From an uncultured bacterium (lineage in GTDB: Bacteria; Patescibacteriota; Minisyncoccia; SW-4-49-11), in contig CALMJI010000014.1 in NCBI GenBank assembly GCA_937864235.1, positions 5,769 to 69,768 of the forward strand: a DNA stretch of 64,000 nucleotides, read 5' to 3'. The notes under the pieces were generated by a model. It was not told the DNA's origin. It ran no database searches and was given only the letters and a program-made list of their open reading frames with translations. Position numbers and translations under genes: made by a program. This document shows positions 8,449 to 62,455 of this stretch, piece after piece (positions within the stretch are counted from its first letter, which is position 1; each line of letters begins with the position of its first letter).

Positions 8449-8645
8449 GATGAGGTAATTGTCGACAAAAGGGATTATATACATTACTATACTAATAACA
8501 GTAAATTGGGTGGTAATTGTCCTCCTTTGCCTGCCTGCGGTAGGCAGTGAGGAGGTGGCACAGAGTGCCGGAGGTGGATAGATTTCTAGTTTATGTTTTA
8601 TCCACCCCCGCCTTTCAGGCTTCCCCCTCCGAAGGGGGACAAAAC
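8449..8645. repeat. GC-rich modular hairpin repeat, copy R1 (carries the AT-rich 5' leader 'gatgaggtaatYgtcgacaaaagRgat')
   Basis: Shares the leader and the modules gtcctcc..aggaggtggcac, ggcacagagtgccgg, ggaggtggat..atccaccc and cccctccgaagggggac with the copies at 44676 and 48925. Confidence 0.6.
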
Positions 8646-8774
8646 TAATATTTTTTTGTCACAACCACTCAAGCAAATATAATGTCCACTTACGTAACTC
8701 GTAAATTGTCTACGATCCTTCTTATCTTATTCAGGGTATGATATAATATAAAAGTTATAAATAAACATAAATCT

Positions 8775-9614
8775 ATGCAGATTGAACCTGGAACTTCTCC
8801 AAAACATCGTTATGAGTTAATAAAATCTACTCTACTGGTCATTATTGGGGCTCTGATTACTATTACTGTAATCTATGGGATTGACTATTTTAGCCCGAAA
8901 GCAGAACCTGATCCTATAGCAGTAGTGGAACCAGTATCTCAAACAGAGCCTGTTGTGGAAGAAAAATCTACTCCTACTACCACCCCTACTCCAGAAGCTC
9001 CTAAAGAAAAAGTTTATTCTCAAGATGAACTGAATAAAATATTCGAGATGGATAAGAAAAAACCTGGTACTAAATTATTCTATTCTGATAAACTTGGGGT
9101 TGGGTTTACTTATGCTCCAAGAAAAGATTTTCCCGAACTAACTCCTGATACTGTAACAGAAATAGACAATATAATTTATTTATCTGAAAAGGAATCCGCT
9201 ACCCCTTCTAAATTAAAAGAAGGTTATGGGTTAAGTTTAGAAGTATTTACAAAAGACCCTAAAGATACTCTTGATCAGGCTGTTACCAAAGAGTTCTTAG
9301 CTGGAGCTGATTCTAAAAATTGTTTTATTGTTTCACAAAAAGACTCTAAGATTCCTTATGCTAAGAATGGTCCATTTGTTATTTCTGAGATTGGTTATCC
9401 ACCATCAGAGGACAGTGCTATTGTTGGAGATAAGTGTCCCCTCAAAGCTCAGCCGTACGCTCAAACAAATGCTGCTCAATTTTTCTTTGCTGAGAAAAAA
9501 GATTCATCTCAATATGGATTTTTAGGTCTAGGACAAGGAGCTTTTACTGCTGATTCCGGAATTAATGGAGATAATGTTGGGTCTTGGACCGACACTATCC
9601 GCTTCTTAAAATAA
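8775..9614 (+). CDS. Hypothetical secreted or membrane-anchored protein
   Basis: N-terminal TM helix, then a P/T/E-rich linker; no recognisable catalytic motif. Confidence 0.3.
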   Translation: MQIEPGTSPKHRYELIKSTLLVIIGALITITVIYGIDYFSPKAEPDPIAVVEPVSQTEPVVEEKSTPTTTPTPEAPKEKVYSQDELNKIFEMDKKKPGTKLFYSDKLGVGFTYAPRKDFPELTPDTVTEIDNIIYLSEKESATPSKLKEGYGLSLEVFTKDPKDTLDQAVTKEFLAGADSKNCFIVSQKDSKIPYAKNGPFVISEIGYPPSEDSAIVGDKCPLKAQPYAQTNAAQFFFAEKKDSSQYGFLGLGQGAFTADSGINGDNVGSWTDTIRFLK

Positions 9615-9626
9615 ATCTTGCCTAAT

Positions 9627-9660
9627 AAAAAGAGGGAGCGAACCACTCCCCTTTTTTATT
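9627..9660. terminator. Bidirectional intrinsic terminator between convergent genes
   Basis: A-tract, then gggag..ctccc hairpin, then T-tract (aaaaagagggagcgaaccactcccctttttt). Confidence 0.45.
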
Positions 9661-9682
9661 TTGATTTATAAAGTTAAATTTT

Positions 9683-13172: not shown

Positions 13173-13202
13173 ATAATATTAGAAAGCTAAATATATTGTA
13201 GC

Positions 13203-18778: not shown

Positions 18779-19045
18779 GTGGATCTCGTGAATCGCAGGG
18801 GCAACCTTGCAGTCACCTGTGTTTTTGTATTATGACCTTTTGAATTTCTGTCCTCCTTCGGAGGAGGTGGCACAGAGTGCCGGAGGTGAATTGAGCTAAA
18901 AATTAAATTCTATCCACCCTCCCCCTTACGGGTACTCCCTCCAAAGGGAGGCAAAAGCTCCGGTACAAAAATACCTCGGGCGACATAAGGTCGCATCTAC
19001 GAACACAAAACTCAATGGAGGGATAACCTCTCCACTACGACTCTC
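18779..19045. repeat. GC-rich modular hairpin repeat, copy R2 (abuts ychF stop codon)
   Basis: Modules gtcctccttcggaggaggtggcacagagtgccggaggtg, ccctccaaagggagg and gggcgacataaggtcgcatctacgaa. Confidence 0.6.
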
Positions 19046-20113
19046 CTACACATTAAACTTAAAGTGACAGACATCTCCATCTTGGATAATGTAAGACTTA
19101 CCTTCTTGTCTCAACTTACCGTTTTGCCTGGCCCCTACCTCGCTACCGCAATCGACAAAATCTTGATATGAGATTATATCTGCCATTATGAAGCCTCGCT
19201 CTATATCTGAATGTATAACTCCTCCAGCTTGTGGGGCTAAGGTTCCTTGTTTGACTGTCCAAGCTTTGGTCTCCTGTACTCCAGTGGTAAGAAAAGATAT
19301 TAAGTCTAATAATTTATATCCCTCTTGAATTAGGGTGTCTAGCCCACTCATTTCTCGTCCTAGCATTGTTAGATATTCGGTTTGCTCCTCTGCTTCCATC
19401 AGACAGATTTCAGATTCGATTTTGATAGATAGTGGGATTATATTAGTAAATTTATCTTGTAATTCTGGGCTAAGCTGATATGTCTCATCGGTATTAGCTA
19501 CATACATCATTGGCTTAGCGGTTAGAAAATTATAGGATTTTATAATTTCTAGCTCCTCTGGGGCTAGTTCAGCATCTCTAATTGGGGTACCAGCTTCTAT
19601 GCGTGGTAATATTTTTTGTAAAATTGGGAGAGTTTCTAAGGCTAATTTGTCTTTGGACTTAGCTTTTTTTTCTACCTGTGGTAGAGCTTTGGTGATCTGA
19701 TCTAAATCAGCTAATAGTAATTCAGTATTGATAATATCAGCATCTTCAATCGGGTTAATTCTATTCTCAACATGAGTAATATCATCATTATGAAATACTC
19801 TAATCACATGACAAATAGCATCTACTTGCCTAATATTAGCAAGAAATGCGTTTCCCAAACCTTCACCTTTGGAAGCACCTTTGACTAATCCAGCTATGTC
19901 TATGAATTCTATGGTAGTGGGGATTACTTTGGCAGATTTGGAAATTTGAGCCAGTACATCTAGTCTTTGGTCCGGTACTGGAACACCTCCAACATTAGGC
20001 TCAATAGTACAAAAGGGGTAATTCTCCGCTGATACTTGCTTTTTGGTAAGAATTTGAAATAGAGTAGATTTACCAACATTAGGTAGACCAACAATACCAA
20101 TGGATAAGGACAT
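19046..20113 (-). CDS. ychF: Ribosome-binding ATPase YchF (Obg-family GTPase)
   Basis: G1 'GLPNVGKST', TGS-like C-terminus, 355 aa. Confidence 0.8.
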   Translation of the reverse strand: MSLSIGIVGLPNVGKSTLFQILTKKQVSAENYPFCTIEPNVGGVPVPDQRLDVLAQISKSAKVIPTTIEFIDIAGLVKGASKGEGLGNAFLANIRQVDAICHVIRVFHNDDITHVENRINPIEDADIINTELLLADLDQITKALPQVEKKAKSKDKLALETLPILQKILPRIEAGTPIRDAELAPEELEIIKSYNFLTAKPMMYVANTDETYQLSPELQDKFTNIIPLSIKIESEICLMEAEEQTEYLTMLGREMSGLDTLIQEGYKLLDLISFLTTGVQETKAWTVKQGTLAPQAGGVIHSDIERGFIMADIISYQDFVDCGSEVGARQNGKLRQEGKSYIIQDGDVCHFKFNV

Positions 20114-20175: not shown

Positions 20176-20440
20176 TGGGGAGGGTGGATGTATTTTTGTA
20201 ATTTAAGATTTTGCTCTGTAATTTAATAGGGGCGACTTTTCAGTCGCCCCTATTGTCCTCCTCCGTCACCTACGGTGACACCTCCCCCAAGGGAGGGAAA
20301 AAACTGTCCCTCGCCGGCGAGGGGGGACCGCGTAGAGGTGGGTGTGGACAGTCGACTTACAGGTCGCCCCTACGAATACATAAAACAATGGAGGGATAAA
20401 CCCCATCACAAATAAAGTATGTGATGACCTCAAACCCTCC
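20176..20440. repeat. GC-rich modular hairpin repeat, copy R3 (in the ychF / rpsF divergent region)
   Basis: Modules ggggcgacttttcagtcgcccc, gtcctcctccgtcacctacggtgacacctcc, gtccctcgccggcgaggg and ggtcgcccctacgaa. Confidence 0.6.
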
Positions 20441-20499
20441 GCTACGATATTTCATAATTTACCATTCATAATTTATAATTGATGATTTTATACATACCC

Positions 20500-28666: not shown

Positions 28667-28704
28667 AGGGTATATATTAATTGTGAATTATGAATTGTTT
28701 TCCT

Positions 28705-28915
28705 AGTGGAGGTTTTTAGTCCATCCCATACCTTGTTTGGGATAGGATTTATCCCTCCAGTTTTTCGTAGGGGCGACCTTTCAGTCGCCTTAAATTCCCC
28801 TCGTTGAGGGGTGCCCGTAGGGCGGGGTGGAGTGTTTTGTTTTTCATATTTATTCCACCCCGTCAGGCAAGCCTGCCACCCCTCAATTTATCTCCCGTAG
28901 GGATGAGAGGGAAAT
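28705..28915. repeat. GC-rich modular hairpin repeat, copy R4 (pgl / dnaE divergent region)
   Basis: Modules ggggcgacctttcagtcgcc, cccctcgttgaggggtg and ccaccccgtcaggcaagcctgccacccctcaa. Confidence 0.6.
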
Positions 28916-29006
28916 TTTTAAGAAGATATCACATAATTCAATTCTCTACCCATTATTATACCACATTATAAATATGCTATAATATATAAAAGGAAATATT
29001 TATTAT

Positions 29007-34497: not shown

Positions 34498-35520
34498 ATG
34501 TCAAGAAATGCTTATCTAAGTTCAGTCATTAATCTAACGTCTAAAATTTTATCCAATAAGGACAAGGTTGCCTCTCATACCTCTTGTGATTCTTATCGTA
34601 GTGTAGAGTGGGCAAAATATGCTCAAACTTATCATAATCTGTTATATAGCAACCCTGTATCTGAAGTTTTAGGGGTAAAAGAGTTTTTGCATCTTGATGG
34701 TACAAAATATAGGTCAGAGTATAAATATAACTTAAATCTAGATAAAATTCTCAAAGACAGCCTTGTAAAAAGACCAAAAATGATTTGGCTACCTTGTATT
34801 GATGAGAGAATACAATATTTGACCGCTTCTCATCATGCTTTATCCCTTGGAATTCCTGGTTGTGAATGCTTGATGTCAGCAGAGGAAAAATTACAAATGG
34901 CAGATAATATAATCGCTGTGTGTGAAGATAATCCAACTATTGAGGAAATTGTAGTCTCATCTCACTCTAAATGCGGAGCTGTAGCTCATACTCTAGCTAA
35001 TAAAAGTTCTAAGCCAGTTTTGAATAAAATTTTAGATAAATTTCAAAATCAAGATAAAGTCCTAGATTCAGCCAGTGAGCGATATGCTTCTGGCTTTGCT
35101 AGTATTCTAGCCACTAGATTACAAGAGCAAAATTCTGCAGTCTCTGTGAGAACCCATCACTTCCATTTTCAAGAATTACATTCCAAGCATTTACATCATG
35201 CCTTTGGAGTAATTGTAAACTTTAACCCCCTACTCAATGGAGCTGAATTAGAAGAAAATTTGGAAGTTCCAATGTTTAATATTTATGCCGGTGGGCAAAC
35301 TGCCAACCAAATTATGCAAAATATTGAATTAGCAATAGATATAGCTTCTAGCTCTGAAGGATTTAGCTGTGAATATATTAATCAAGACAATCCATTTATA
35401 TTATTATTCACTATACCAAAAGAGAATAGCTCTATTATGTCCAAAATCCAAGCTGTAATAGACCAAATTCAAGATAAACATTATCCTTTGGAATTAGTTT
35501 ACACTGTTTTAGAGGGGTAA
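34498..35520 (+). CDS. Hypothetical protein with beta-carbonic-anhydrase-like Cys/Asp/Arg...His/Cys motif pair
   Basis: 'LPCIDERIQY' and, about 57 aa later, 'SSHSKCGAVAH' match the spacing of the beta-CA zinc ligands (CxDxR ... HxxCG). The rest is unrecognised; 340 aa. Confidence 0.3.
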   Translation: MSRNAYLSSVINLTSKILSNKDKVASHTSCDSYRSVEWAKYAQTYHNLLYSNPVSEVLGVKEFLHLDGTKYRSEYKYNLNLDKILKDSLVKRPKMIWLPCIDERIQYLTASHHALSLGIPGCECLMSAEEKLQMADNIIAVCEDNPTIEEIVVSSHSKCGAVAHTLANKSSKPVLNKILDKFQNQDKVLDSASERYASGFASILATRLQEQNSAVSVRTHHFHFQELHSKHLHHAFGVIVNFNPLLNGAELEENLEVPMFNIYAGGQTANQIMQNIELAIDIASSSEGFSCEYINQDNPFILLFTIPKENSSIMSKIQAVIDQIQDKHYPLELVYTVLEG

Positions 35521-35810
35521 GTTTCCGTAGGTGCGACCTTCTTAGTCGCCCGTAAATCCACCCCGTCTCTATACTATAAAAATATAGTATAGATCACCCC
35601 TCAAGAGGGGAATTTAGCTCAGTCCACACCCGGCACTCCGTGCCACCCTCGCCGGCGAGGGACAAAATTACTGTCCTCCCTTGCCTGCCTGCGGTAGGCA
35701 GGGGGGAGCTTTCAGTCCCTCCTATATTTATATAGGAGGGGGTGGCCATCAGGCAGGAGGAGGACAAGTGGACGACTGAAAGGTCGCCCCTACGAAAGAA
35801 ATTATCCCGT
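35521..35810. repeat. GC-rich modular hairpin repeat, composite copy R5
   Basis: Modules gtgcgaccttcttagtcgccc, ccaccccgtc, cccctcaagagggg, ggcactccgtgcc, ccctcgccggcgaggg, gtcctccc..cctgcctgcggtaggcagg and ggacgactgaaaggtcgcccctacgaa. Confidence 0.6.
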
Positions 35811-42574: not shown

Positions 42575-42668
42575 ATGGGTGTTTTAAAATTATTATGAGT
42601 TATAAAATATTATCCTCCAAAGGGAGACAAAAACACAAATCAAAATTTATTAAAAAACAACTCTATCC

Positions 42669-44616: not shown

Positions 44617-44675
44617 AGTTACCTCAAACTTGCAAACTCAACCATAACACAAAAACAAGAATTTAGCAAGTTGGT

Positions 44676-44900
44676 GTACGAGATGAGGTAATCGTCGACA
44701 AAAGAGATTGTATACATTACTAGTCTACTAACATTAAGTTCCGATAGTAGTTGTCCTCCTTTGGAGGAGGTGGCACCGTAGGTGACGGAGGAGGACAAGA
44801 TATCAAGATTATATTTAATATAATAGAATAATATTAATCTTTAAAATATATAGTCCACACCCACCACCTCGTGGTCCCCCCTCGCCAGCGAGGGACATAA
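44676..44900. repeat. GC-rich modular hairpin repeat, copy R6 (with AT-rich 5' leader)
   Basis: gtacgagatgaggtaatcgtcgacaaaagagat leader, then gtcctcctttggaggaggtggcaccgtaggtgacggaggaggacaag, then cccctcgccagcgagggac. Confidence 0.6.
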
Positions 44901-45012
44901 TATAATAGTTACTCAATTCCAAATATTTTCTATGATATCCTAATCTCGTACAAAACCTTGACTTTATATCTAATATGAGGTATAATGTTGTTTAATTATG
45001 TATTTATAGATT

Positions 45013-47707: not shown

Positions 47708-48473
47708 AAAAATATCTTTTATAATAGTTTCTTATAAAAGTAAAAAATTCTTAACAGATTGTGTGAATTCAATTATTAAATATACCTCTGGAGAGTATGA
47801 AATTGTTATTGTAGACAATAATTCAGGGGAAAATTTAGATGAAATTCAAAACTTATCCACATCTAAAATTAAAATTATATATTCTCAAAAAAATGCCGGA
47901 TTTGGCTCTGGGGTGAATCTAGGAGCTACTCAAGCTACAGGAGATTGGCTATGTATAATTAACCCAGACACACGAATACAAGGAGATATCCACACATTAT
48001 CCACAATTGACAAAAACACTAAGCTGATTGGTCTGGCTCTAGTCAATCAAGAAAATCAAATTCAGGCTTATCAGTATGGAGACTTCCCTACTCCCAAGAG
48101 TATAATTAGTAATAGGGCTAAAAAACAATGGCAAAACCCAACACAAGAGACAATATCCACTGATTGGATTAGTGGAGGCTCAATTTGTATAGAGGCAAAA
48201 CTTTTCCAAGAGCTCGGAGGATTTGATGAGAGATTTTTTATGTATTATGAGGATATAGACTTATGCTATCGAGCTAAACAAGCCGGACATCAAGCTTATT
48301 GGACACAACAGGTTACAATTTGGCATTATGAAGGCGGCTCCGAGAGTAGAATTATAAATACCAAAAAAAGATATTACAAATCCCAAAGACAATACATAGC
48401 TAAGTGGTATGGTCAAATCTGGACAATATTGCTGTACCCCTTGCATTTGATACAGTTGGTGAGACTAAAATAA
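47685..48473 (+). CDS. Family 2 glycosyltransferase
   Basis: 'ISFIIVSYKS...YEIVIVDNNSGEN' GT-A N-terminus and DxD-type 'YYEDIDLCYRA'. Confidence 0.65.
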   Translation: MPSIFKNKKISFIIVSYKSKKFLTDCVNSIIKYTSGEYEIVIVDNNSGENLDEIQNLSTSKIKIIYSQKNAGFGSGVNLGATQATGDWLCIINPDTRIQGDIHTLSTIDKNTKLIGLALVNQENQIQAYQYGDFPTPKSIISNRAKKQWQNPTQETISTDWISGGSICIEAKLFQELGGFDERFFMYYEDIDLCYRAKQAGHQAYWTQQVTIWHYEGGSESRIINTKKRYYKSQRQYIAKWYGQIWTILLYPLHLIQLVRLK

Positions 48474-48475
48474 AT

Positions 48476-48640
48476 TGTCCTCCTTTACCTGCCTACCGCA
48501 GGCAGGCGAAGGGGGACAAAATAAACTGTCCTCCCTTGGGGGAGCTTTAAGTCCCTCCTATATTTATTTAGGAGGTGGGTGGCACCGCAAGGTGACGGAG
48601 GAGGACAAGCTGGAGACCTTTTAGGAGTCCCTCCTAAAAT
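48476..48640. repeat. GC-rich modular hairpin repeat, copy R7
   Basis: gtcctcctttacctgcctaccgcaggcagg..gtcctcccttggggg..ggagg..ggcaccgcaaggtgacggaggaggacaag. An inverted, near-identical copy lies at 58353..58495. Confidence 0.6.
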
Positions 48641-48768: not shown

Positions 48769-48924
48769 TTTGTTCAAGATAATAATGATTTTGCTAAGGT
48801 AAAGAAAAAGCTCGAGTCATTGCTCGAGCTTTCACAATGATCACCAGAGTTAGACTCTGGATCGGTGGGTAACTCCAAAAGCAATATAATAATATAAGAA
48901 TATTTTGCTTTTGTCGATACAATG

Positions 48925-49105
48925 TACGAGATGAGGTAATCGTCGACAAAAGGGATAGATACATTACTAAACTAATAACAGTAAATTGGATAGTAATTGT
49001 CCTCCTTTGGAGGAGGTGGCACGGAGTGCTGGAGGTGGATTGAGTTCTAGTTTATGTTTTATCCACCCTCCCCCTACGGGTACTCCCTCCTAAGGGAGAC
49101 AAAAT
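48925..49105. repeat. GC-rich modular hairpin repeat, copy R8 (with AT-rich 5' leader), upstream of mod
   Basis: gtacgagatgaggtaatcgtcgacaaaagggatagatacattactaaactaataacagtaaattgg leader, then gtcctcctttggaggaggtggcacggagtgctggaggtggat..atccaccc and cgggtactccctcctaagggag. Confidence 0.6.
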
Positions 49106-49256
49106 TAAGAACTCTTTTTATAACCATATAAACTACTTTCATGTGTCACCTATAAAAGTAACAACTTATATACGATGTATCTCATCTTATTCATACAACC
49201 CCTATTTTTTTATCTAAAAAATTGATATAATTTAGCTAAAGATATATATTAGTTTT

Positions 49257-51581
49257 ATGAATAATACAGTCAAAAATTTGAAAAGTTTAATCAAAAGCAC
49301 TTTGAAGGGTGATGAGAGATTATGGTTTGTCAATCAAGATAATGAACAGGAATTCAATCAAACTTTGCTTTTGGATTTGGTAGAAAAAGTAGATAATAAA
49401 ATTATTAGTCTATTATTACAAGAGGAAGTATTAAGAGAGAAGTTTTTTGTCAAAATTGTTCCACCCCGTCCAGCAAAGCTGTCCACCCCTCAAGAGGGGA
49501 ATTTTTCCTATGTCTTCAAAACTAATGAATTTAGATTCTTTATGGAGGAGAACAAAGTAGATAATTCATATACTAGTTTCAAAAATCGCATCGGGCTTAC
49601 TGATGGTAAAAAATTCCTCAAAGATAGTGGCGATATTGTATTAGATTGGCCGTATAAAGACTGTGTGCTAGAAGGTGGGCAAAGTACGGAGGAAGGATCA
49701 GATATTTATTTTGAATATGACACTAAATCCACCCCGTCAGGCAAGCCTGCCACCCCTCAAGAGGGGAATTATATCAAGAAGCAAGGTAAGAGAAAAGAAA
49801 TATTTTTCAATCAAGTTCTAGCTCAAGATGAGATAGATAGATTGCTAGATCCAAAGGCTTTGGTTAATTGGAAAAGATTTGATAAAAATGGTAAAACTCC
49901 CCTCTTGAGTGGTGGCGACGAAGTCGACGGGGTGGATGCTCTCAAAAGAAATGAAGACGGCACTATTGCTGAGAATTTGATTATAAAAGGCAATAATCTC
50001 TTAGCTCTACACTCTCTCAAAAAACAATTCCGAGGCAAAGTCAAGCTGATTTATATTGACCCACCTTATAATACTGGTAATGATGGCTTCAAATATAATG
50101 ATAACTTCAATCACTCCACTTGGCTGACTTTTATGAAAAATAGATTGGAAGTGGCAAGAGAGCTATTGCGGGAGGATGGGGTGATCTTTGTGCAATGTGA
50201 TGATAATGAGCAAGCATATTTGAAGGTTTTAATGGATGAGGTGTTTGGGAATAATTTTTTGAATACTATATCTGTAAAAGCAAAAGTTAGTGCAGGAGCA
50301 AGCGGAGGAGGTGAGGATAAAAGACTTAAAAAGAATATAGAGTATATACATTGTTACTTTAAGAAAGATTTTATTGTTTTTAACGATTTATACAAAGAAA
50401 CAGAAATAGTTTCATATATACAACAGATGAAAAATGAAGGGAAAAGTTTTAAATATACTCAGGTTTTAATTTCTACTGGTGAAAAAGAAATATTAAGAGT
50501 TATTAAAGATGGTTCTGGAGAAGATATTACAATCTATAAACACTCAGGAGTTGTAATTAAAACAATCTCTCAATTAATAAAAGAAGAGAATCTTTCTGTA
50601 AAGGAGGTATATAAAAAATATTTCAATAAAATTTTCACAACAACGAATGCACAAAGTTCAATTCGCCAAAGAGTTTGGGATGCAACTGGTAAAAACAATG
50701 ATTTTTTTAGTATTGAATATATTCCAAAATCAGGAAGAAATAAAGATAAATTAACCACACAATTTTATACAGGAAATAAAAAGGTTCTTCTAATATGGTT
50801 TAGCGATACAGCTATAATTGATAGTAAAGGAAATGTAATTAAAAAAGAAAAATACGGTACATTTTGGGATGGAATTGACTATAATAACTTAAATAAAGAG
50901 GGCGATAATATTTTTTCTTCTGGTAAAAAACCAGAAAAACTTATTCAAAGGATAGTTGAAATGAGTACAGAAAAAGGCGACATTGTGCTTGACTATCATC
51001 TTGGCTCTGGGACTACTTGTGCAGTGGCTCATAAAATGGGTCGGCAGTATATTGGAATTGAGCAAATGGATTATATTGAGACTATCGCTGTGGAGAGGTT
51101 AAAGAAAGTAATTAGGCAATCCACCTCCCCCGCTAAAGCGGGTACTCCTCAAGATGAGAATATTCCCCTCGTTGAGGGGTGGACTGCGAAGCAGGACGGG
51201 GTGGATTCTTTTGACACAGGAGGAATATCCAAAGCTATAAATTGGCAAGGTGGTGGCGATTTTATCTATTTTGAACTAGCTAAATGGAATCAGCAGGCTA
51301 AAGAAATAATTCAAGCAGCTGAGAGTTTGGAGGAGATGATTGGATGTTTGGATGAATTATCTGATAAATATTTCCTCAATTATAATCTCAAAATGCAAGA
51401 ATTTCGAGAAAAGGTAATCTTGGAGGCTGAGTTCCAAACTTTATCTCTAGAGAGCCAAAAAGCTATATTTATGGCTATGCTGGATAATAATCAGATGTAT
51501 GTCAATAAAAGTGAAATGGCTGATGAGAAATTTGGTATTAGTGAAGAGGAGCAGAAATTGACAGAGGAGTTCTATAAGTAA
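49257..51581 (+). CDS. mod: Type III restriction-modification system methyltransferase (Mod; beta-class N6-adenine/N4-cytosine MTase)
   Basis: Motif IV 'IYIDPPYN' upstream of motif I 'VLDYHLGSGTT' (beta-class order); 774 aa; a res gene lies downstream. It carries four in-frame GC-rich repeat modules. Confidence 0.8.
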   Translation: MNNTVKNLKSLIKSTLKGDERLWFVNQDNEQEFNQTLLLDLVEKVDNKIISLLLQEEVLREKFFVKIVPPRPAKLSTPQEGNFSYVFKTNEFRFFMEENKVDNSYTSFKNRIGLTDGKKFLKDSGDIVLDWPYKDCVLEGGQSTEEGSDIYFEYDTKSTPSGKPATPQEGNYIKKQGKRKEIFFNQVLAQDEIDRLLDPKALVNWKRFDKNGKTPLLSGGDEVDGVDALKRNEDGTIAENLIIKGNNLLALHSLKKQFRGKVKLIYIDPPYNTGNDGFKYNDNFNHSTWLTFMKNRLEVARELLREDGVIFVQCDDNEQAYLKVLMDEVFGNNFLNTISVKAKVSAGASGGGEDKRLKKNIEYIHCYFKKDFIVFNDLYKETEIVSYIQQMKNEGKSFKYTQVLISTGEKEILRVIKDGSGEDITIYKHSGVVIKTISQLIKEENLSVKEVYKKYFNKIFTTTNAQSSIRQRVWDATGKNNDFFSIEYIPKSGRNKDKLTTQFYTGNKKVLLIWFSDTAIIDSKGNVIKKEKYGTFWDGIDYNNLNKEGDNIFSSGKKPEKLIQRIVEMSTEKGDIVLDYHLGSGTTCAVAHKMGRQYIGIEQMDYIETIAVERLKKVIRQSTSPAKAGTPQDENIPLVEGWTAKQDGVDSFDTGGISKAINWQGGGDFIYFELAKWNQQAKEIIQAAESLEEMIGCLDELSDKYFLNYNLKMQEFREKVILEAEFQTLSLESQKAIFMAMLDNNQMYVNKSEMADEKFGISEEEQKLTEEFYK
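49460..49505 (+). repeat. In-frame GC-rich repeat module inside mod (encodes PPRPAKLSTPQEGN)
   Basis: ccaccccgtccagcaaagctgtccacccctcaagaggggaat, the same module as intergenic copies R4, R5 and R14. Confidence 0.55.
49729..49770 (+). repeat. In-frame GC-rich repeat module inside mod (encodes STPSGKPATPQEGN)
   Basis: ccaccccgtcaggcaagcctgccacccctcaagaggggaat, nearly identical to R4 at 28856..28885. Confidence 0.55.
49897..49940 (+). repeat. In-frame GC-rich repeat module inside mod, inverted orientation (encodes PLLSGGDEVDGVD)
   Basis: cccctcttgagtggtggcgacgaagtcgacggggtggat. It contains the reverse complement of the ccaccccgtc and cccctcaaga modules. Confidence 0.45.
51121..51200 (+). repeat. 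In-frame GC-rich repeat module inside mod C-terminal region (encodes STSPAKAGTPQDENIPLVEGWTAKQDGVD)
   Basis: ccacctcccccgctaaagcgggtactcctcaag..cccctcgttgaggggtgg..gacggggtggat. It shares gggtactcc, cccctcgttgagggg and ccaccccgtc motifs with R2, R4 and R8. Confidence 0.5.
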
Positions 51582-51590
51582 TTATGAATT

Positions 51591-52628
51591 ATGAAAAAAG
51601 AGAAAAAACAATTATCTCAAATCATACAATCAAGTACAGCTCAGTATTTGACTTTTGTGTCGGCCAATGGTGATGATTCGTCTAGTATAGAAGTAAGATA
51701 TGAGGATGAGAATATTTGGATGACTCAAAAAATGCTGGCGGAACTGTATGATGTATCTGTGTCGGCCATCAATCAGCATATTAAGAAATTAACAGAAGAT
51801 AATGAGATAAACGATTCAGTTATTAAGCAATACTTAATAACTGCTAGTGATGGTAAGAAATATAATACGGCTCACTACAATCTTCAAACAATTATTTCTA
51901 TTGGATTTAAAATAGAAAATGAAAGAGCGGTACAATTTCGTAAATGGGCAAGAGAAATAGTAAAAGAGTATACTATTAAGGGTTTTGTAATGGATGATGA
52001 GAGGCTCAAAAATGGAGGTACCACTTTAACTAAAGAGTTTTTTGAACAACTTCTTGAAAGAATTAGAGAAATAAGGCTATCGGAGAGAAAGTTTTATCAA
52101 AAAATTACTGATATTTATGCAACAGCGATTGATTATGATTCTAGTGCAGAGACGACAAAAAAGTTTTTTGCTATGGTACAAAACAAGCTTCACTGGGCAA
52201 TTCATGGACAAACAGCCTCTGAATTGATCTATACTCGGGCAAATTCAGAAAAAGAAAATATGGGGCTTACTTCTTGGAAAGATGCACCAAAAGGGAAAAT
52301 TCAAAAATTTGATGTGAGTATTGCCAAAAATTATCTTACTGACAAAGAACTTGCAAGTTTACAAAGAATAGTATCGGCATATCTGGATATCGCAGAAGAT
52401 ATGGCAGAGAGAAATATCCCAATGACAATGCAAGATTGGGCAAAAAGACTCAATACCTTTATAGAGGCAGCAGATAGAAAAGTGCTTCAAGATGCTGGGA
52501 AGATTACCGCACAAATAGCAAAGGACTTTGCAGAAAGTGAATTTGAAAAATATAGAATTGTGCAAGATAGATTGTTTGAATCAGATTTTGACCGTGAGAT
52601 AAAAAAACTTTTAGAAAACAATTTATAA
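51591..52628 (+). CDS. RhuM-family (virulence-protein RhuM-like) HTH protein embedded between mod and res
   Basis: N-terminal 'TQKMLAELYDVSVSAINQHIKKL' HTH and conserved RhuM-like core 'RAVQFRKWAREIVKEY'; 345 aa. Confidence 0.5.
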   Translation: MKKEKKQLSQIIQSSTAQYLTFVSANGDDSSSIEVRYEDENIWMTQKMLAELYDVSVSAINQHIKKLTEDNEINDSVIKQYLITASDGKKYNTAHYNLQTIISIGFKIENERAVQFRKWAREIVKEYTIKGFVMDDERLKNGGTTLTKEFFEQLLERIREIRLSERKFYQKITDIYATAIDYDSSAETTKKFFAMVQNKLHWAIHGQTASELIYTRANSEKENMGLTSWKDAPKGKIQKFDVSIAKNYLTDKELASLQRIVSAYLDIAEDMAERNIPMTMQDWAKRLNTFIEAADRKVLQDAGKITAQIAKDFAESEFEKYRIVQDRLFESDFDREIKKLLENNL

Positions 52629-52631
52629 TAT

Positions 52632-53474
52632 ATGAAAACACAATTAATTCACCAACTTACGGCCAATTTCGAAGATTTATCACATCAGACAAATTATGGA
52701 GTAGAGTTTTGGTTGGCAAGAGACTTACAACATCTTTTGGGCTATGATAAATGGGATAATTTTAAGAATATTATTAGTAAAGCAAAAACAGCTTGTGAAA
52801 TTTCTGGGCAGAAAGTTACAGACCATTTTGCCGACGTCGGGAAAATGGTCTCTATAGGTTCAGGTGCTGAAAAAGAAATAGAAGACTTAATGTTAACTCG
52901 CTATGCTTGTTATCTCATTGCTCAAAATGGAGACTCAAGAAAACAGGAAATTGCCTTTGCTCAGACTTATTTTGCAGTACAAACCAGAAAAGCTGAAATT
53001 ATAGAACAAAAAATCCTTGAATATGAAAGAGTTCAGGCTAGAAATAAACTTGCAGAAACTGAAAAAGAGCTATCTCAAGTAATATTTGAACAAACAGGAA
53101 GTGATCAAAACTTTGCACTAATTAGAAGTAAAGGTGATCAAGCTTTATTTAATCAAACTACTCAACAAATGAAGGGTAAATGGGGAATTAAGAATAAGCC
53201 TCTTGCTGATTTTATGCCAACCATATTACTGAAAGCTAAAGATTTTGCTACTGAAATTACTATTTTTAATGCCAAAGAAAAAAAGATGCAAACAGAGCAT
53301 CAAATTTCAAATGAGCATATTACTAACAATAAATCTGTGAGACATACTCTTATTACTCGTGGTATTACTCCAGAAAATTTACCACCTGAAGAAGATGTCA
53401 AAAAAATTGCCAGAAAACTAAAAAAAGAGGAGAAAAAAACTATTAAAACAGATGATACCTTTGGTAATTCATAA
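52632..53474 (+). CDS. dinD: DNA-damage-inducible protein D (DinD)-like protein
   Basis: 'GVEFWLARDLQHLLGYDKWDNFKNIISKAKTACEISGQKVTDHFADVGKMV...LTRYACYLIAQNGDSRKQEIAFAQTYFAVQTRKAE' aligns closely with the E. coli DinD N-terminal domain. Confidence 0.6.
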   Translation: MKTQLIHQLTANFEDLSHQTNYGVEFWLARDLQHLLGYDKWDNFKNIISKAKTACEISGQKVTDHFADVGKMVSIGSGAEKEIEDLMLTRYACYLIAQNGDSRKQEIAFAQTYFAVQTRKAEIIEQKILEYERVQARNKLAETEKELSQVIFEQTGSDQNFALIRSKGDQALFNQTTQQMKGKWGIKNKPLADFMPTILLKAKDFATEITIFNAKEKKMQTEHQISNEHITNNKSVRHTLITRGITPENLPPEEDVKKIARKLKKEEKKTIKTDDTFGNS

Positions 53475-56261: not shown

Positions 56262-56264
56262 TTT

Positions 56265-57272: not shown

Positions 57273-57328
57273 GAAAAAACCCCTACAAAATAGGGATTTG
57301 GGTTGTTATTGAGTTGTTGGATCGGGAC

Positions 57329-58033
57329 TCAGCCAACGAGTGCGGCTGCTGCCATTCGAGCTATTTCACGGTTTTCAAATCCGATATCCATCAGAGCTTC
57401 CTGATAGGAACTGAGGAAATCAGCCATCAGGTCTTCCTTGTCCATGTGAAGCGCTTTAGCATCCACAGCCACCTGGTCGAGCATTTTGCGAACCAAGGGC
57501 AGATTGTCCCGGTTAGCCTGCTTCAATTCCTCCCGACTGGCATTGAGATTGGCCTTCAGCCATTCCTGTCCGTAGTTGAGATGAGTGTATTCATCTTTGA
57601 CCACCCGTTCTGTGATCTTGCGGGCAAATGGATCGGCCACTGGGATATAAATGTGGTAGGCGGAAATCGCAAAGGCTTCGATCAAGATTGCCTGAATCAA
57701 CATGCAGGTCACCACTTTGCCATCAGTGATGGCCTTCTGAAAATTGCCATGCAATGGAGCGAAGAACTCCTTTGCAAACGGCATATCTGCTGTCACACCG
57801 AGGTTGTTGGCACAGGCGGTGAAACCTTTCATATGCTTGAGCTCCATGCGGGCCAGCTTGACAAGCTCCTCCACCTGGTCTGGCATCAGGGTGCCAATAG
57901 CGATGTAGTTGTCATGAGCCTCCTGTTCACCCTTGATTACGATGGCATTGATGCGACTGTAGGCATCTTTGTAGGTGTCACTTGTGAAGTCTGGGAGATC
58001 AGATTGTTCACCGGTAATTGATACTGCTGTCAA
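57329..58033 (-). CDS. ado: Aldehyde-deformylating oxygenase (ADO, cyanobacterial-type ferritin-like di-iron enzyme), N-terminally truncated, apparent TTG start
   Basis: Near full-length match to the cyanobacterial ADO family signature blocks 'DFTSDTYKDAYSRINAIVIKGEQEAHDNYI', 'KGFTACANNLGV', 'CMLIQAILIEAFAISAYHIYIPVADPFARKITERVVKDEYTHLNYGQEWLKAN'. The ORF sits in a ~770-bp block of about 50% GC, against about 30% background. Confidence 0.8.
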   Translation of the reverse strand: MTAVSITGEQSDLPDFTSDTYKDAYSRINAIVIKGEQEAHDNYIAIGTLMPDQVEELVKLARMELKHMKGFTACANNLGVTADMPFAKEFFAPLHGNFQKAITDGKVVTCMLIQAILIEAFAISAYHIYIPVADPFARKITERVVKDEYTHLNYGQEWLKANLNASREELKQANRDNLPLVRKMLDQVAVDAKALHMDKEDLMADFLSSYQEALMDIGFENREIARMAAAALVG

Positions 58034-58352
58034 GGTGCTAGCTGGGAGTTTAACCCAGGCTATAGGACATTTTTATACTATACCTTTTTGATAGTTTTGT
58101 ATATAGTATAAAATAAAAGGAGGGTTTTTATACCCTCATATGAATAAATAGCATTTTGATAAAAATTGTAAGTGCGTAAAATGAAAGAATTACAGCGGCG
58201 GTGGCAGATAAGAATCTTATAAGTCTAAAGTCCATATATCAAAACTTCATAGGTCAATTCTAAACCAGCATTTTTTATAAGATAATTCAAGATTGGGTGA
58301 ATTTAAAATATGTGGAGATGGATATCCACCTCAGAATGGTAACATAATATAA

Positions 58353-58495
58353 GTCCTCCTCCGTCACCTACGGTGCCACCCACCTCCTAAATAAATATAG
58401 GAGGGACTTAAAGCTCCCCCAAGGGAGGACAGTAATTTTGTCCCTCGCCAGCGAGGGACAAAATACAACAGGCGACTGAAAGGTCGCCCATACAA
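58353..58495. repeat. GC-rich modular hairpin repeat, copy R13 (inverted orientation relative to R7)
   Basis: gtcctcctccgtcacctacggtgccacccacctcctaaataaatataggagggacttaaagctcccccaagggaggac is the reverse complement of 48530..48610. It is followed by gtccctcgccagcgagggac and ggcgactgaaaggtcgccc. Confidence 0.6.
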
Positions 58496-58499
58496 AAAA

Positions 58500-58820
58500 C
58501 TACTCCGCCTCTGACTCCTCTCCTCCACCAATAGTGAAAGCTGAGATTAGCTGTTCCCGAACGGCCTCAATATTAGCTTGGATAATTTCTGAGACTATAT
58601 TACTAGCTTCTTGTTGTCCTTGTTCTATTCCTTCTTGAACAATTTTCTCCCCTTCAGCTACGATTGGTTGGGATATTTCGGCTACTGGTTGAGTTACGGT
58701 AGCTAGATTTGGTTTTATAAAAGTATTAAATACAATTACACCTCCAACAATTGAGAGTATTAGAAAGACTCCAATTCCAGCAATGATGAAAGTGAAGATT
58801 TTAGGCATCATTTTAGGCAT
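58500..58820 (-). CDS. Hypothetical small membrane-anchored protein
   Basis: 106 aa; N-terminal TM helix, E/Q-rich C-terminal region. Confidence 0.3.
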   Translation of the reverse strand: MPKMMPKIFTFIIAGIGVFLILSIVGGVIVFNTFIKPNLATVTQPVAEISQPIVAEGEKIVQEGIEQGQQEASNIVSEIIQANIEAVREQLISAFTIGGGEESEAE

Positions 58821-58902
58821 AATATTATTGTTTATTGATACCTTTTTATTATAATATAGATTATTTATTTAGAAAAGAGTATAATAATGGTATAAATTTA
58901 GA

Positions 58903-60087: not shown

Positions 60088-61319
60088 GTAGAATATTCTT
60101 TGGACTTGGTTTGATTATTCCGCTATATGTGATTAGATTTACAGTTTTTGGTATTCCGACTAATGTTTTGGAAGTTGGGATTGGATTTGTATTACTAATA
60201 TTTTTGATACAATTTAGAGATTATAAAAATTTATTCCATATTTCTAATTATTGGAATCCAAAGACTCTAATTTTTGGTAGTTTATTAATTTTGGCTAGCA
60301 TAGGGGTGTTTGTAAGTGAGGAATTGAGGTCAAGTCTAGGAATTTGGAAAGCATATTTTGTCTTGCCAATTTTGCTTTTATTAATATTGTCTCAAATGGG
60401 GTCAAAATATTATTTCTCGCTAATTAGGGGAATTATTGGCAGTGGTTTGGTGGTATCTATTATAACTATTGCACAAGTGGTGGTATTGGGACTGGATGGA
60501 GGGTTTAGACCGACGGCTTTATATGCTCTGGGGCTTGATCCAGCTGTGGCACAAGGAGGTTTTGCTAATTATATTGCGATGTATTTGGTGCCAATTTTTG
60601 TCTTGAGTTTGTCTCGTCGAAATATCCCAGTAGAGTTAAGATGGTTTGTAATAGCTGTGTTATTCACAGGTATTATGACAACTCAATCCTACGCGGGCAT
60701 TTTTGCCCTTATAGGGGTATTAGGAATATGGATATTGACTAGAATATCTATTGGCCAAAAAAATAGACAAAATATAATTACTAATCCAATATTAAAACAA
60801 TACCTATTGCCAATTCTGGGAGTGATTATAATTAGCTTAATAGGATTTGGAATATGGCAATTTAATACTCCAAAATTTCAGAGTTTGCTCGATATGAATA
60901 ATCGCAATTCTATAACTACTAGAATCCAAATTTGGGACACTTCAATTTCAATAATTAAAGATAATCCAGTGCTAGGAATAGGTCTTGCCGACTTTCAGAG
61001 AGTCTATGCTGATACTATTCCTTATAAATACTTCCCTCCTTATGAATGGTTAGTACCAGAGCCTCATAACTTATACTTTGCTTTTTGGCTACATCTAGGG
61101 TTGGCAGGTATAATTTGGCTTATTTATGTGCTAAAATATATAATCTTAAGGTTAATTAAATCTATAAAGTCCAACCAATGGGAGATATATTGGCTTAGTC
61201 TAAGTCTCTTGTCTATATTCCTTTACGGGATATTAGATACTCCTTTTTGGAAAAATGATTTATCTCTAGTATTCCTCGTGATCCTATATGGAGTTATGGG
61301 GAAAAGGAAAAAGCCGTAG
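60084..61319 (+). CDS. O-antigen ligase/polymerase-like (Wzy_C family) membrane protein, paralogue
   Basis: 411 aa polytopic membrane protein; start overlaps the preceding gene by 4 nt (translational coupling). Confidence 0.45.
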   Translation: MSRIFFGLGLIIPLYVIRFTVFGIPTNVLEVGIGFVLLIFLIQFRDYKNLFHISNYWNPKTLIFGSLLILASIGVFVSEELRSSLGIWKAYFVLPILLLLILSQMGSKYYFSLIRGIIGSGLVVSIITIAQVVVLGLDGGFRPTALYALGLDPAVAQGGFANYIAMYLVPIFVLSLSRRNIPVELRWFVIAVLFTGIMTTQSYAGIFALIGVLGIWILTRISIGQKNRQNIITNPILKQYLLPILGVIIISLIGFGIWQFNTPKFQSLLDMNNRNSITTRIQIWDTSISIIKDNPVLGIGLADFQRVYADTIPYKYFPPYEWLVPEPHNLYFAFWLHLGLAGIIWLIYVLKYIILRLIKSIKSNQWEIYWLSLSLLSIFLYGILDTPFWKNDLSLVFLVILYGVMGKRKKP

Positions 61320-61337
61320 GGTAGCTACGGCTTTTGT
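61313..61337 (+). terminator. Intrinsic terminator after the O-antigen-ligase-like gene pair
   Basis: gccgtag/ctacggc stem, 5-nt loop, then ttttg. Confidence 0.5.
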
Positions 61338-61351
61338 GGGTTGAGCTAAGT

Positions 61352-61735
61352 CTAGCTCATAGGGGGATTTGGTGTATGAAAGAGACCCCATAATAGTGTG
61401 ATATATTCTTCCATTTTTTCCTCATCACTACATATTGTTAGAGAATAATTCTCGCTCAACTTTCTCAAGCTCTGAGCTTGAAAGGAGTATTTAAAATGTT
61501 CTAGATCTAACAGGAGTAATGATATATTGGAGTCAGGTTTAAAGTCTAAAGTCAGATATGAGATGAAATCTCGGTTTTCTAGAAAACCTGGAACACACTT
61601 CATACCTTTACTCAAGGCAATTGCCAGCATCCTGGCAGTGCTTTTGTAGTGATGGAAACGGAATCTTACTAATTCTTTCTCCCTCTTCTTTTTGCCAGTA
61701 ATTTTGTCAAAAAGACGGGTGATGGAGTTAGCCAT
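61352..61735 (-). CDS. Hypothetical protein (possible mobile-element remnant)
   Basis: 127-aa basic protein 'KITGKKKREKELVRFRFHHYKSTARMLAIALSKG'; no confident family assignment. Confidence 0.2.
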   Translation of the reverse strand: MANSITRLFDKITGKKKREKELVRFRFHHYKSTARMLAIALSKGMKCVPGFLENRDFISYLTLDFKPDSNISLLLLDLEHFKYSFQAQSLRKLSENYSLTICSDEEKMEEYITLLWGLFHTPNPPMS

Positions 61736-61842
61736 AACGGTGCTCTGTGAGCAGGGAACGAAAAAACTATATCATAAAAACTATAAAATGTCAATAGCTA
61801 TAGACAATATACTTTAATATAGATATTCTTTTATAACAATCT

Positions 61843-61870
61843 AAAAGAAAAAAGTAGCTCAGGGAGCTAC
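61843..61870 (-). terminator. Putative intrinsic terminator (minus strand)
   Basis: gtagctc/gagctac stem followed on the minus strand by ttttttctttt. Confidence 0.4.
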
Positions 61871-62349
61871 TTAGGTTTATCTTTTCTATTTCTTGAGGAT
61901 CTAGGGTATATTATTAGTATAATACCTATACAGATCAGAAATATACTTAGATATAAATTGATATTTTGATGGTTAAATTTATTTTGAAATATATTTTTTA
62001 CTCCAAAAAATCCAGTATATATACCTAGTAAAATCCCCAACTGATATTTATTATATTGTTTAATGAAATTTTGAAACAGTTTTTTCATTGTTTTAACAAA
62101 GAAGCCAATATAATATACTATAAATTTAGCTAATTGATAAGAGTGTGTGTTGGGATTGAAAATTGAGGGATAGTTTTTTTTGTCCTCCTTTCTACCTACG
62201 GCAGATAAATGGAGGAGGTGGTCTTTAGGTCGGAGGTGGATTTGAGCTAAATTCCCCTCTTGAGGGGTGGACAGCTTTGCTGGACGGGGTGTAAAATAAA
62301 ATATATTCAAATTATAAAAATACTCCACCCCACCGCCTAAAGACGGCAC
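61867..62349 (-). CDS. Small membrane protein; the annotated N-terminal about 50 aa are encoded by repeat R14 (true start probably an internal Met, e.g. MKKLFQNF)
   Basis: The C-terminal two-thirds is AT-rich with two TM helices. The N-terminus 'FTPRPAKLSTPQEGN' is the same peptide encoded by the in-frame repeat at 49460 in mod. Confidence 0.3.
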   Translation of the reverse strand: MPSLGGGVEYFYNLNIFYFTPRPAKLSTPQEGNLAQIHLRPKDHLLHLSAVGRKEDKKNYPSIFNPNTHSYQLAKFIVYYIGFFVKTMKKLFQNFIKQYNKYQLGILLGIYTGFFGVKNIFQNKFNHQNINLYLSIFLICIGIILIIYPRSSRNRKDKPK

Positions 62350-62455
62350 CCCTCAAGAGGGGAATTTTTTAGAGCAAACAGGCGACTGAAAGGTCACCCC
62401 CTCCTAAACTAATAAAGTATGGGAGGGACAAAAGCCTACTAAGGGAGACAAAATT
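62181..62455. repeat. GC-rich modular hairpin repeat, composite copy R14
   Basis: gtcctcctttctacctacggcag..ggaggaggtgg, ggaggtggat, cccctcttgaggggtggacagctttgctggacggggtg (inverted module), ccaccccacc, cccctcaagaggggaat and ggcgactgaaaggtcacccc. Confidence 0.6.

Follow-up and report, generated by a model that had tools for sequence, protein, structure and literature searches.

Short palindromic repeats dispersed in bacterial genomes include repetitive extragenic palindromes (REPs), whose definition includes a conserved tetranucleotide, usually GTAG, 5′ of the palindrome (PMC8266576), and the bacterial interspersed mosaic elements (BIMEs) and inverted REP pairs (REPINs) assembled from them; REPINs and their REP-associated tyrosine transposases (RAYTs) form systems described as vertically inherited (PMC5581495). 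Rickettsia palindromic elements (RPEs) enter unrelated coding genes in frame and add a conserved peptide, leaving the open reading frame (ORF) intact (PMC10969869). [quoted passage not shown] Here we set beside these systems the GC-rich hairpin collages of a 64,000-nt stretch of DNA (contig CALMJI010000014.1; the whole stretch is hereafter "the window") from a freshwater member of the Paceibacteria, within the candidate phyla radiation (CPR). We consider it probable that the collages are accumulated non-autonomous mobile DNA of two kinds, a MITE and a set of hairpin mini-elements, in a Paceibacteria genome.

The elements work like REP/BIMEs and RPEs, and their MITE part has a MITE's structure. 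The likenesses proposed in a first-pass annotation of this DNA each hold for one part of the material: one component, having TIRs and 5-bp TSDs, is a MITE, the small units resemble REP/BIMEs, and one unit type is inserted in frame within ORFs, as RPEs are. As in REPs, BIMEs and REPINs, the units are palindromes of 20–50 nt, GC-rich relative to the genome, multi-copy, and found for the most part in spacers and frequently at the 3′ ends of genes; one of them, unit E (A–G are labels coined in this analysis), has GTAG 1–2 nt 5′ of a 5–6-bp perfect palindrome, as group 3 REPs do (PMC8266576). Inverted pairs with a linker and unit arrays occur as in REPIN–RAYT systems, and some carriers have a syntenic RAYT-like gene that appears to be single-copy. 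Most units nonetheless differ from REPs in consisting of two hairpins and a purine tail, with TTGT or AATT rather than GTAG, in having a hypervariable second hairpin (H2), in nesting within loops, and in not being strictly extragenic (13% of B units lie in ORFs); and, unlike in REPIN–RAYT systems, the RAYT-like gene has no flanking units and scores under the NCBIfam cut-off, and the same unit occurs in two phyla. With RPEs the elements share palindromic repeats in a small AT-rich genome, an intergenic as well as a coding location, and, for B units, in-frame insertion into unrelated ORFs with addition of a conserved peptide. RPEs, known as ten sequence families in Rickettsia, are set apart by size (42–50 nt for B, 92 nt for a doublet, against ~100–150 bp); no relationship in sequence is apparent, and the hosts here are Patescibacteria and Bacteroidota, not Rickettsia, with both orientations used, each in its own preferred frame. 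The MITE resembles bacterial MITEs, BOX included, in its TIRs, 5-bp TSDs, multiple copies, lack of a transposase gene and modular variable interior, and differs in that its GC-rich modules also live outside it and that no parent insertion sequence (IS) was found in ~1.5 Mb of collected loci.

A further resemblance is to whalefall-1 (RF01762), which is likewise multi-copy on AT-rich metagenome contigs: unit A, read as the complement, shows the motif's U-rich lead, pyrimidine/purine first hairpin (H1), UYGG loop, variable H2 and AGGGNGAGGAY-type tail. By score the units are not members of that family, the best matches reaching 22.6, 21.5 and 21.2 bits against a gathering score of 37, and whalefall-1, interpreted as a small RNA (sRNA), is not reported in ORFs or in nested clusters. 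At gathering thresholds Rfam returned nothing in the window and only tRNAs in 17 further loci, which speaks against fragments of a known structured RNA. The small dispersed repeats (SDR) of Nostoc, ~20–27 nt long, were reportedly found by Elhai et al. in 2008 to appear mobile and to lie embedded in other repeats; unit F and other loop-nested mini-hairpins recall them, in different sequences and hosts. Yeast mitochondrial DNA has GC clusters, short GC-rich palindromic mobile sequences in a very AT-rich, reduced genome that occasionally sit in coding sequence, although these are organellar, of other sequence, and not known to have a two-hairpin frame around a variable cassette.

What distinguishes the present elements is the two-hairpin frame with a cassette-like H2, the nesting in loops, the frame-preferring in-frame copies, the streamlined CPR hosts and the sharing with Bacteroidota. 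That the family was unrecognized is borne out: no Rfam family matches at threshold, and in the literature on CPR repeats and on these sequences we found no publication describing them. CPR/Patescibacteria genomes are held to be streamlined, yet 4.4% of the window is selfish-looking hairpin DNA, placed by the replication origin, by core genes and within coding sequence. As a sequence-level marker common to Patescibacteria and Bacteroidota, the units could reveal gene flow between epibionts and their possible hosts, and they remodel proteins through added loops (a methylase, a type IX secretion sorting domain). They also break assemblies, create spurious ORFs and can pass for sRNA genes, which matters for the annotation of the numerous metagenome-assembled genomes (MAGs) in which they occur, and an invariant frame around a hypervariable, perfect hairpin offers a clean system for studying substrate recognition by structure-specific single-strand transposases.

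Composition and folding of the collages

The elements total 2,797 nt and have 47% GC against 33% elsewhere in the window (33.9% overall), with GC-rich cores at 50–63%, in line with the GC-richness first ascribed to them. All ten sites of the first-pass annotation contain its modules, in both orientations, and are the mosaics it took them for. Folded as single-stranded DNA (ssDNA), they give the predicted stacks of short hairpins (z −1.5 to −7.5), and 9 of 12 pieces were unmatched by any of 200 shuffles. Two 63-nt stretches ~9.8 kb apart, 48525–48587 and 58371–58433, are 100% identical in inverted orientation. In 100 dinucleotide-preserving shuffles neither CCACCCCTCAAGAGGGG at ≤2 mismatches nor GTCCTCCTTTGGAGGAGGTGG at ≤3 mismatches appeared once, against six and three observed occurrences, and the most over-represented 8-mers of the window lie nearly all inside elements (e.g., 11/12, 12/12 and 7/7). 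Enriched 8-mers outside elements (TGGAGGAG, AGCTGGAG, GCTGTAGC, GCTTCTGG and CTGGAGGA) may derive from a repetitive coding region.

Clusters comprise three to seven units each; units are found singly, as inverted doublets, nested in the loops of other units, and in frame in ORFs. Clusters adjoin stop codons at 19046, 35520, 48473 and 58500 (within a few bases), and inverted doublets with AT-rich linkers lie at 28795–28918, 62243–62369 and 51117–51208 and in the MITE interior. The copies, at first treated as one family, do share hairpin modules and are heterogeneous, being a MITE plus several classes of mini-unit. Three of them carry the modules as claimed and in fact belong to the TIR/TSD-bounded MITE, which reaches past the GC-rich part; its bounds (8442–8733, 48923–49193 and 44675–44952) are new here, as are a remnant at 42614–42635 and four module insertions in the gene mod. 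The last of these contradict an exclusively intergenic location, for all four lie in frame within ORF 49257–51581.

The MITE

The MITE is ~290 bp long, with both ends set by an alignment of 10 copies and imperfect TIRs of ~27 nt (5′-TGTACGAGATGAGGTAATCGTCGACAA ... TTGTCTACGATGCATCTCATCTTATTCA-3′, TG..CA ends). When collected loci were compared with the window by BLAST, 8444–8734 and 48916–49193 matched stretches of ~270–335 nt elsewhere at 72–91% identity. Copy 1 (292 bp; 8442–8733, + strand) is flanked by GGGTA at 8437–8441 and 8734–8738, and copy 2 (271 bp; 48923–49193, + strand) by TACAA at 48918–48922 and 49194–49198; TSDs at other loci are GAGTA/GAGTA (perfect), CATTG/CATTA and GATAC/GATAA. 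Bounded by TIRs and TSDs, small, multi-copy and devoid of a transposase gene, the element is a MITE. Its ends occur in ~25 loci from several genome assemblies, where copies measure 262–291 bp and, in one case, 356 bp.

Copies vary by module-level events. Specifically, copy 1 contains unit C (8517–8580) with the 19-nt mini-hairpin F (8530–8548) in C's H1 loop, followed by an AT-rich spacer and unit A (8600–8647), and copy 2 contains a C with an empty loop and a second version of A; the two alternative versions of A are each internally compensated. In another locus (L001b) a different hairpin takes the place of the GGCAC one. The spacer from the dnaA-side ORF to the rpmH promoter contains a rearranged variant of 278 bp (44675–44952, + strand), whose 10-nt TIR is perfect (TGTACGAGAT...ATCTCGTACA) and which holds a closed C′ unit (44752–44798) and a D-containing unit (44853–44897), with no TSD at its flanks. 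Because the MITE makes 5-bp TSDs, it would most likely be moved in trans by a DDE-type transposase encoded elsewhere.

Anatomy of the mini-units

The unit-C 24-mer GTCCTCCTTYGGAGGAGGTGGCAC, searched with one genome per species, gave 72 loci in nine genome assemblies, and the 21-nt core of unit B matched at least 120 metagenome stretches, whose GC content is 25–57% among the matches listed.

Units A and B (both read as the complement) and C share one strand plan, namely a T-rich lead, H1, H2 and a purine tail, with a conserved 5′ tetranucleotide (TTGT in A, C and D; AATT in B). H1 is conserved, its tetraloop lying between a pyrimidine arm and a purine arm, and in unit A its stem exists in three compensated versions. 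H2 is hypervariable in sequence and perfect in pairing, and it lies between 7–8-nt direct repeats (GGGGTGG or GGAGGTGG) because the tail, which ends in GGTGGA, repeats the 3′ arm of H1; a form in L020, ATTCCACTCTTGAGGGGTGGAGT, has neither H2 nor the repeat. Unit lengths are 20–50 nt. Unit D is a single palindrome led by TTGT, and both F and G are small hairpins; in some copies the H1 loop holds F (CCTGCCT-N5-AGGCAGG), in one orientation or the other, and sister copies are empty. Unit E, in which GTAG and 1–2 nt precede a 5–6-bp palindrome with a 6-nt loop, occurs as GTAG-GG-GCGAC-N6-GTCGC at 28766, at the complements of 35773, 20353 and 18978, and at 35527.

Unit B, of the form CCACCCCGTC-H2-CCACCCCTCAAGAGGGGAATT, carries most of the quantitative evidence. 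As H2 length is too variable for a single alignment, pairing was assessed by direct stem counting against shuffles. Across 159 B units (unique contexts, all collected sequence) there are 101 distinct H2 sequences with 37 different stems, and a stem of at least 4 bp is present in 78% compared with 6.5% of shuffles (maximum 12.6%), a constraint on structure without one on sequence. The H2 pairs number 353 Watson–Crick and 7 G–T. Between co-directional genes B stands in sense orientation 16 times and in antisense 20 times. An intrinsic terminator role was rejected on this balance and on the sequence that follows, which is AATT(T) rather than a T-run after B, and ACAAAA after unit A.

In-frame insertions in genes

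The gene mod (49257–51581, + strand) encodes a type III restriction-modification methylase of 774 aa (Pfam N6_N4_Mtase and TypeIII_RM_meth), and alignment against homologues without insertions places four in-frame module insertions in it, which make Mod 40–80 aa longer than those homologues. Site 1 (49457–49503, + strand) is a B unit encoding VPPRPAKLSTPQEGN, filled in the window and in L073 and absent in L061 and L017. Site 2 (49726–49770, + strand), encoding STPSGKPATPQEGN, holds a forward B in the window and L073 and an inverted B in L061, and is empty in L017. The inverted, slightly decayed B of site 3 (49893–49940, − strand; TPLLSGGDEVDGVD) is present in all four orthologues and lacking in distant homologues. 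Site 4 (51117–51208; QSTSPAKAGTPQDENIPLVEGWTAKQDGVDSF) is a head-to-head doublet of 92 nt, an A-like unit and an inverted B, that folds as one long hairpin closed by ATCCACC/GGTGGAT. The inverted B at site 2 of L061 is a 43-nt exact copy of that gene's own site-3 unit, ~170 nt downstream. At site 1, L061 and L017 encode SPDTTEKHS, and their DNA agrees with B's H1 half at 13 of 23 positions; an older insertion, since decayed and AT-shifted, may have left this stretch as its remnant.

Overall, 22 of the 164 B units (13%), four of them in mod, lie in ORFs of at least 200 aa. Forward copies in ORFs use the TPQEGN frame in 9 of the 10 listed, though all three frames are open; with orthologous copies counted once, 8 of 9 independent insertions do so (binomial p ~0.001). 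One more TPQEGN-frame B lies inside the Por_Secre_tail domain of a 1,030-aa protein (L104), and another ORF (L160) contains four units. Reverse copies use two stop-free frames, and the peptide frames observed are TPQEGN, IPLLRG and NSPLEGW.

RhuM-family and Bro-N-domain genes (51591–53474) interrupt the type III operon between mod and res, and the same position in the related operon of L203 is taken by a Fic/RhuM gene together with an NYN gene. The presence of different genes at this point in the two operons suggests that the mod–res gap is a variable cargo slot.

Turnover at orthologous sites and spread between phyla

Comparison with related genomes, proposed at the outset as a way of finding empty sites, shows orthologous sites that are empty, filled or oppositely oriented. 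The dnaN-dnaA-rnpA-yidC region of the window has syntenic counterparts in L020 (JBIKVS, Lake Mendota) and L040 (JBEDBC) at 79–86% DNA identity, which assigns the window to a freshwater Paceibacteria genome. In these two the dnaN–dnaA spacers hold large, differing clusters in opposite orientations, where the window has only the remnant, a unit A hairpin (CCTCCAAAGGGAGACAAAA; 42610–42640, match at 42614–42635, + strand). In the rpmH-upstream spacer, whose flanks are conserved, the window has the MITE variant, L020 has AT-rich sequence without modules, and L040 has traces only. L073 is closer, with aligned segments 90–96% identical to the window; the cluster at 58345–58501 is absent there, and four or more module-level changes separate its version of the one at 62181–62460 from that of the window, among them a swap of H2 in a B that is otherwise the same. 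Between the window and genomes with orthologous genes at 79–86% identity, units of 42–45 nt reach 93–100%. In L040 (1500–2900) a duplicated block of ~650 nt adjoins the dnaN–dnaA hairpin cluster, and both copies have a small ORF and a region resembling a promoter.

The distribution reaches beyond the window genome and beyond its phylum. Seven of the nine assemblies with the unit-C 24-mer are labeled as CPR lineages (Paceibacteria/Parcubacteria, Minisyncoccia and "Saccharibacteria") and two are Bacteroidota: unit C, in one case with unit A, occurs in the complete Sphingobacteriales chromosome CP096135.1 and in a Bacteroidetes MAG of 55% GC. B units occur on contigs of 44–57% GC and on contigs with Bacteroidota-type proteins, namely a Reg_prop/Y_Y_Y histidine kinase and one with a type IX secretion sorting domain. 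A phage origin was discarded, the unit-C 24-mer having no match in viral contigs. Tandem 6–8-nt repeats (GAAGTCG/GAAATCG, GTGTAAAG) flank Bacteroidota C and B units (L003, L011, L035 and L051 of MAG PZPC01; L133 and L083), and in other loci a B unit lies within a tandem array with a repeat unit of ~75 nt.

Candidate enzymes

RAYT-like ORFs were found in two B-seeded loci. The ORF in L149 (4653–5273) scores 22.7 bits against Pfam Y1_Tnp and 61.9 bits against NCBIfam REP_Tyr_transpos (NF047646), and that in L153 scores 25.5 and 29.9 bits, respectively, the NCBIfam cut-off being 80. Homologues of the former, on several CPR contigs (L206–L211), keep a conserved, tightly packed order of CCA-adding enzyme (seen where the locus extends far enough), RAYT-like gene, 88-aa ORF and V-ATPase subunit I. 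From this context the gene, between the CCA-adding enzyme and the V-type ATPase operon, appears to be domesticated and single-copy, a pattern described for RAYTs (PMC5581495). L149 lies on a 221-kb contig that also carries the collage of L198, and in L209 a cluster of E, A and D units lies 2 kb from the RAYT-like gene.

A small NYN-domain (LabA/DUF88) nuclease was also considered as a partner and rejected. All seven NYN ORFs in element-seeded loci are embedded in collages; among loci chosen for an NYN gene, a collage was present at the close homologue only, and the three distant homologues (L203–L205) lie without one in restriction-modification or toxin (defence-type) islands. We read the association as common residence in accessory islands. 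The NYN genes in collages are those of L039 (334–849 and 2505–3023), L072 (699–1094), L100, L116, L188, L195 and L197–L202, with collages on both sides wherever both flanks are covered. Three NYN proteins from different assemblies are almost identical, and several contigs end within ~300 nt of the NYN gene.

Mode of movement and alternative explanations

For the mini-units we favor ssDNA copying of the REP/REPIN kind because an invariant frame encloses a free and perfect hairpin, one unit is of the GTAG type, inverted doublets occur, orientation is unbiased relative to transcription, and G–T pairs are nearly absent. A trans-acting, structure-specific enzyme would copy the units as folded ssDNA, in the manner of REP/REPIN–RAYT or IS200/IS605 systems, recognizing the invariant frame together with the shape of the hairpin. 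New copies would insert into AT-rich spacers, beside or inside each other's loops, into the MITE and sometimes into ORFs, where the survivors would be in-frame copies encoding a harmless hydrophilic loop. As a secondary process, recombination or template switching between copies may reshuffle modules and keep the stems perfectly paired. The units would thereby persist as selfish rather than functional DNA.

Several observations weigh against mobility of this kind. Concerning the enzymes, no transposase stands beside the elements in 22 window ORFs scanned with Pfam (mostly cluster-flanking) and none belongs to an ORF family that recurs in the ~1.4 Mb of loci bearing elements; for the MITE, ~1.5 Mb of collected sequence contains no long autonomous copy and no left and right ends at the spacing of an IS. 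The RAYT-like genes lie below the NCBIfam cut-off, one of them also just below that of Pfam, and units do not flank them; RAYT is a candidate through co-occurrence only, in some CPR carriers, and not for the window genome or Bacteroidota. Concerning the units, GTAG is confined to E, and the direct repeats flanking H2 could be target duplications, which would indicate a mechanism of the DDE and not the HUH type. The forward strand of B has more UUCG-type loops (TTC 13 vs. GAA 5), an excess that could reflect RNA-level selection. The high identity of short BLAST matches is partly an ascertainment effect, and among the orthologous sites compared there is no clean pair of empty and filled sites with alignable flanks for a mini-unit.

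A broader reading, which we hold as possible though doubtful, joins these strands: the two-hairpin units of ~40 nt would be an ancient, structure-defined replicator with an invariant frame and a cassette hairpin, kept by a domesticated RAYT-like enzyme in a Paceibacteria housekeeping operon and exchanged with Bacteroidota, and the whalefall-1 "RNAs" would belong to the same superfamily, having been misread as sRNA genes. If true, a partnership of REPIN–RAYT type persists in some of the smallest bacterial genomes, and exchange with Bacteroidota could mark physical contact between host and epibiont.

The units might alternatively be small structured RNA genes or cis-elements related to whalefall-1 and kept for an RNA function (3′-end protection, termination, protein binding or regulation). 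On the complement of unit A there are sub-threshold RF01762 matches of 21–22.6 bits, and the whalefall-1 seeds have the same architecture (H1 with a UYGG loop, variable H2, purine-rich tail), but these scores remain far under the 37-bit gathering threshold, with no threshold match in 129 kb of further loci. Weinberg et al. judged whalefall-1 to be an RNA from covariation and tetraloops, and the units here similarly have covarying stems between invariant flanks and UUCG-type loops favored on one strand; G–U pairs, however, number only 7 of 360, which is unusual for an RNA family that covaries this strongly. Several clusters adjoin stop codons (19046, 35520, 48473 and 58500), where REPs are known to stabilize mRNA, yet orientation is unbiased with respect to transcription (16 vs. 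20) and both orientations occur inside one ORF. As units also nest in each other and in the MITE, and their presence varies at orthologous sites, we regard an RNA function as an unlikely account of the collages.

Similarly improbable, in our view, is formation of the hairpins in place by quasi-palindrome template switching and direct-repeat slippage, with spread by homologous recombination after DNA uptake. It would account for H2 stems that are near-always perfect Watson–Crick palindromes of unrelated sequence between 7–8-nt direct repeats, for the L020 form without H2 and repeat, for orthologous clusters that differ by hairpin swaps rather than by gain of whole elements, and for the new copy in L061 identical to one 170 nt away. 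It leaves unexplained the recurrence of identical 40–50-nt units at unrelated sites by the dozen, across two phyla and within ORFs, the invariance of the flanks over long divergence, and a MITE bounded by TIRs and TSDs.

There is little to recommend the view that the units are host binding or signal sites at the DNA level (for uptake, Chi-like recombination, nucleoid proteins or gyrase), even if their G-rich cores (GGAGGTGG, GGGGTGG) resemble Chi-type octamers, they are conserved across species above the level of genes, and E. coli REP/BIMEs are reported to bind gyrase and IHF. The enriched 8-mers are confined to clusters amounting to 4.4% of the window rather than spread along it, on which ground an uptake or Chi-like signal was rejected; the distribution is clustered and polymorphic, units of either orientation lie to each side of the dnaA/rpmH origin region, and elements are absent at orthologous sites in close relatives with no evident consequence.

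That the repeats arose in assembly or binning, or are pieces of some known structured RNA, we dismiss as next to impossible, for although the genome is metagenome-derived and GC-rich islands in AT-rich contigs can signal chimeras, three independent assemblies (L074–L076; 99.99–100% identity to the window) carry identical sequence, elements occur in the complete chromosome CP096135.1, ORFs read through the insertions, and the window has no Rfam match at threshold and, by ARAGORN, zero tRNA and zero tmRNA.

Clusters and other features of the window

The window genes include dnaA, dnaN, rpmH, rnpA, yidC, dnaE, ychF, rpsF, prfA and a type III restriction-modification operon, and the neighbors of the repeats are ychF, rpsF, dnaE, rnpA/rpmH, dnaA and dnaN, those named at first having been correctly identified. 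The cluster at 18779–19045 (+ strand) adjoins the ychF stop codon and comprises a hairpin (18779–18820), unit C (18848–18890), unit A (18912–18959), unit E (GGGCGAC..GTCGC-ATCTACGAA; 18976–19003) and a tail hairpin (19017–19036). In the divergent ychF/rpsF spacer, the cluster at 20176–20447 has a palindromic E (20226–20253), an inverted C′ (20253–20300), D plus a GGTGGGTGTGGAC unit (20305–20349), a further E (20350–20377) and a tail hairpin (20383–20447). An inverted copy of that tail hairpin lies in the cluster upstream of dnaE (28701–28918), along with an inverted E with GTAG (28762–28790) and a doublet of inverted B (28795–28833), 22-nt AT spacer and forward B (28851–28918), the latter with a mini-hairpin in its H1 loop.

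Directly after the stop of ORF 34498–35520, the cluster at 35521–35810 holds an inverted E with GTAG, a B with a long AT-rich H2 (35558–35614), a GGCAC hairpin unit, an inverted D, a C-type H1 with nested F (35672–35708), G (35709–35744) and E (35768–35797). At a glycosyltransferase stop, the cluster at 48473–48640 consists of TTGTCC..GGACAA with an inverted F nested in it (48475–48520) and a block of C-type H1 and G (48525–48587). The inverted copy of this block belongs to the cluster at 58345–58501, which adjoins the stop of ORF 58500–58820 (− strand) and also has an inverted C′, a palindromic D (58438–58471) and an E (58471–58497). The last cluster, at 62181–62460, contains a C with a mini-hairpin in its H1 loop (62181–62239), a doublet of inverted B, 40-nt AT spacer and forward B (62243–62369), and E, G-like and A-H1 units.

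Two further features lie apart from the repeats. A 340-nt island at 2026–2364, of 57% GC and with about eight perfect hairpins, is unrelated to the repeat family, has no Rfam match and resembles nothing in any collected locus; RNA folding of 2020–2420 gives z ~ −5.5 on both strands, the + strand being more stable (−180 vs. −154 kcal/mol), and a 120-aa ORF overlapping the island (2072–2434, − strand) has no Pfam match. The island could be a structured RNA of no known family or a private hairpin collage. At 57329–58033 (− strand), a 234-aa ORF matches Pfam Ald_deCOase (E 1.9e-114), the cyanobacterial-type long-chain aldehyde decarbonylase/deformylating oxygenase, at ~50% GC against 34% for the genome. 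The region aligns in L073, and the ORF is present in the independent assemblies L075 and L076 (where the contig end cuts it); its appearance is that of an alkane-synthesis gene that a CPR bacterium acquired horizontally.

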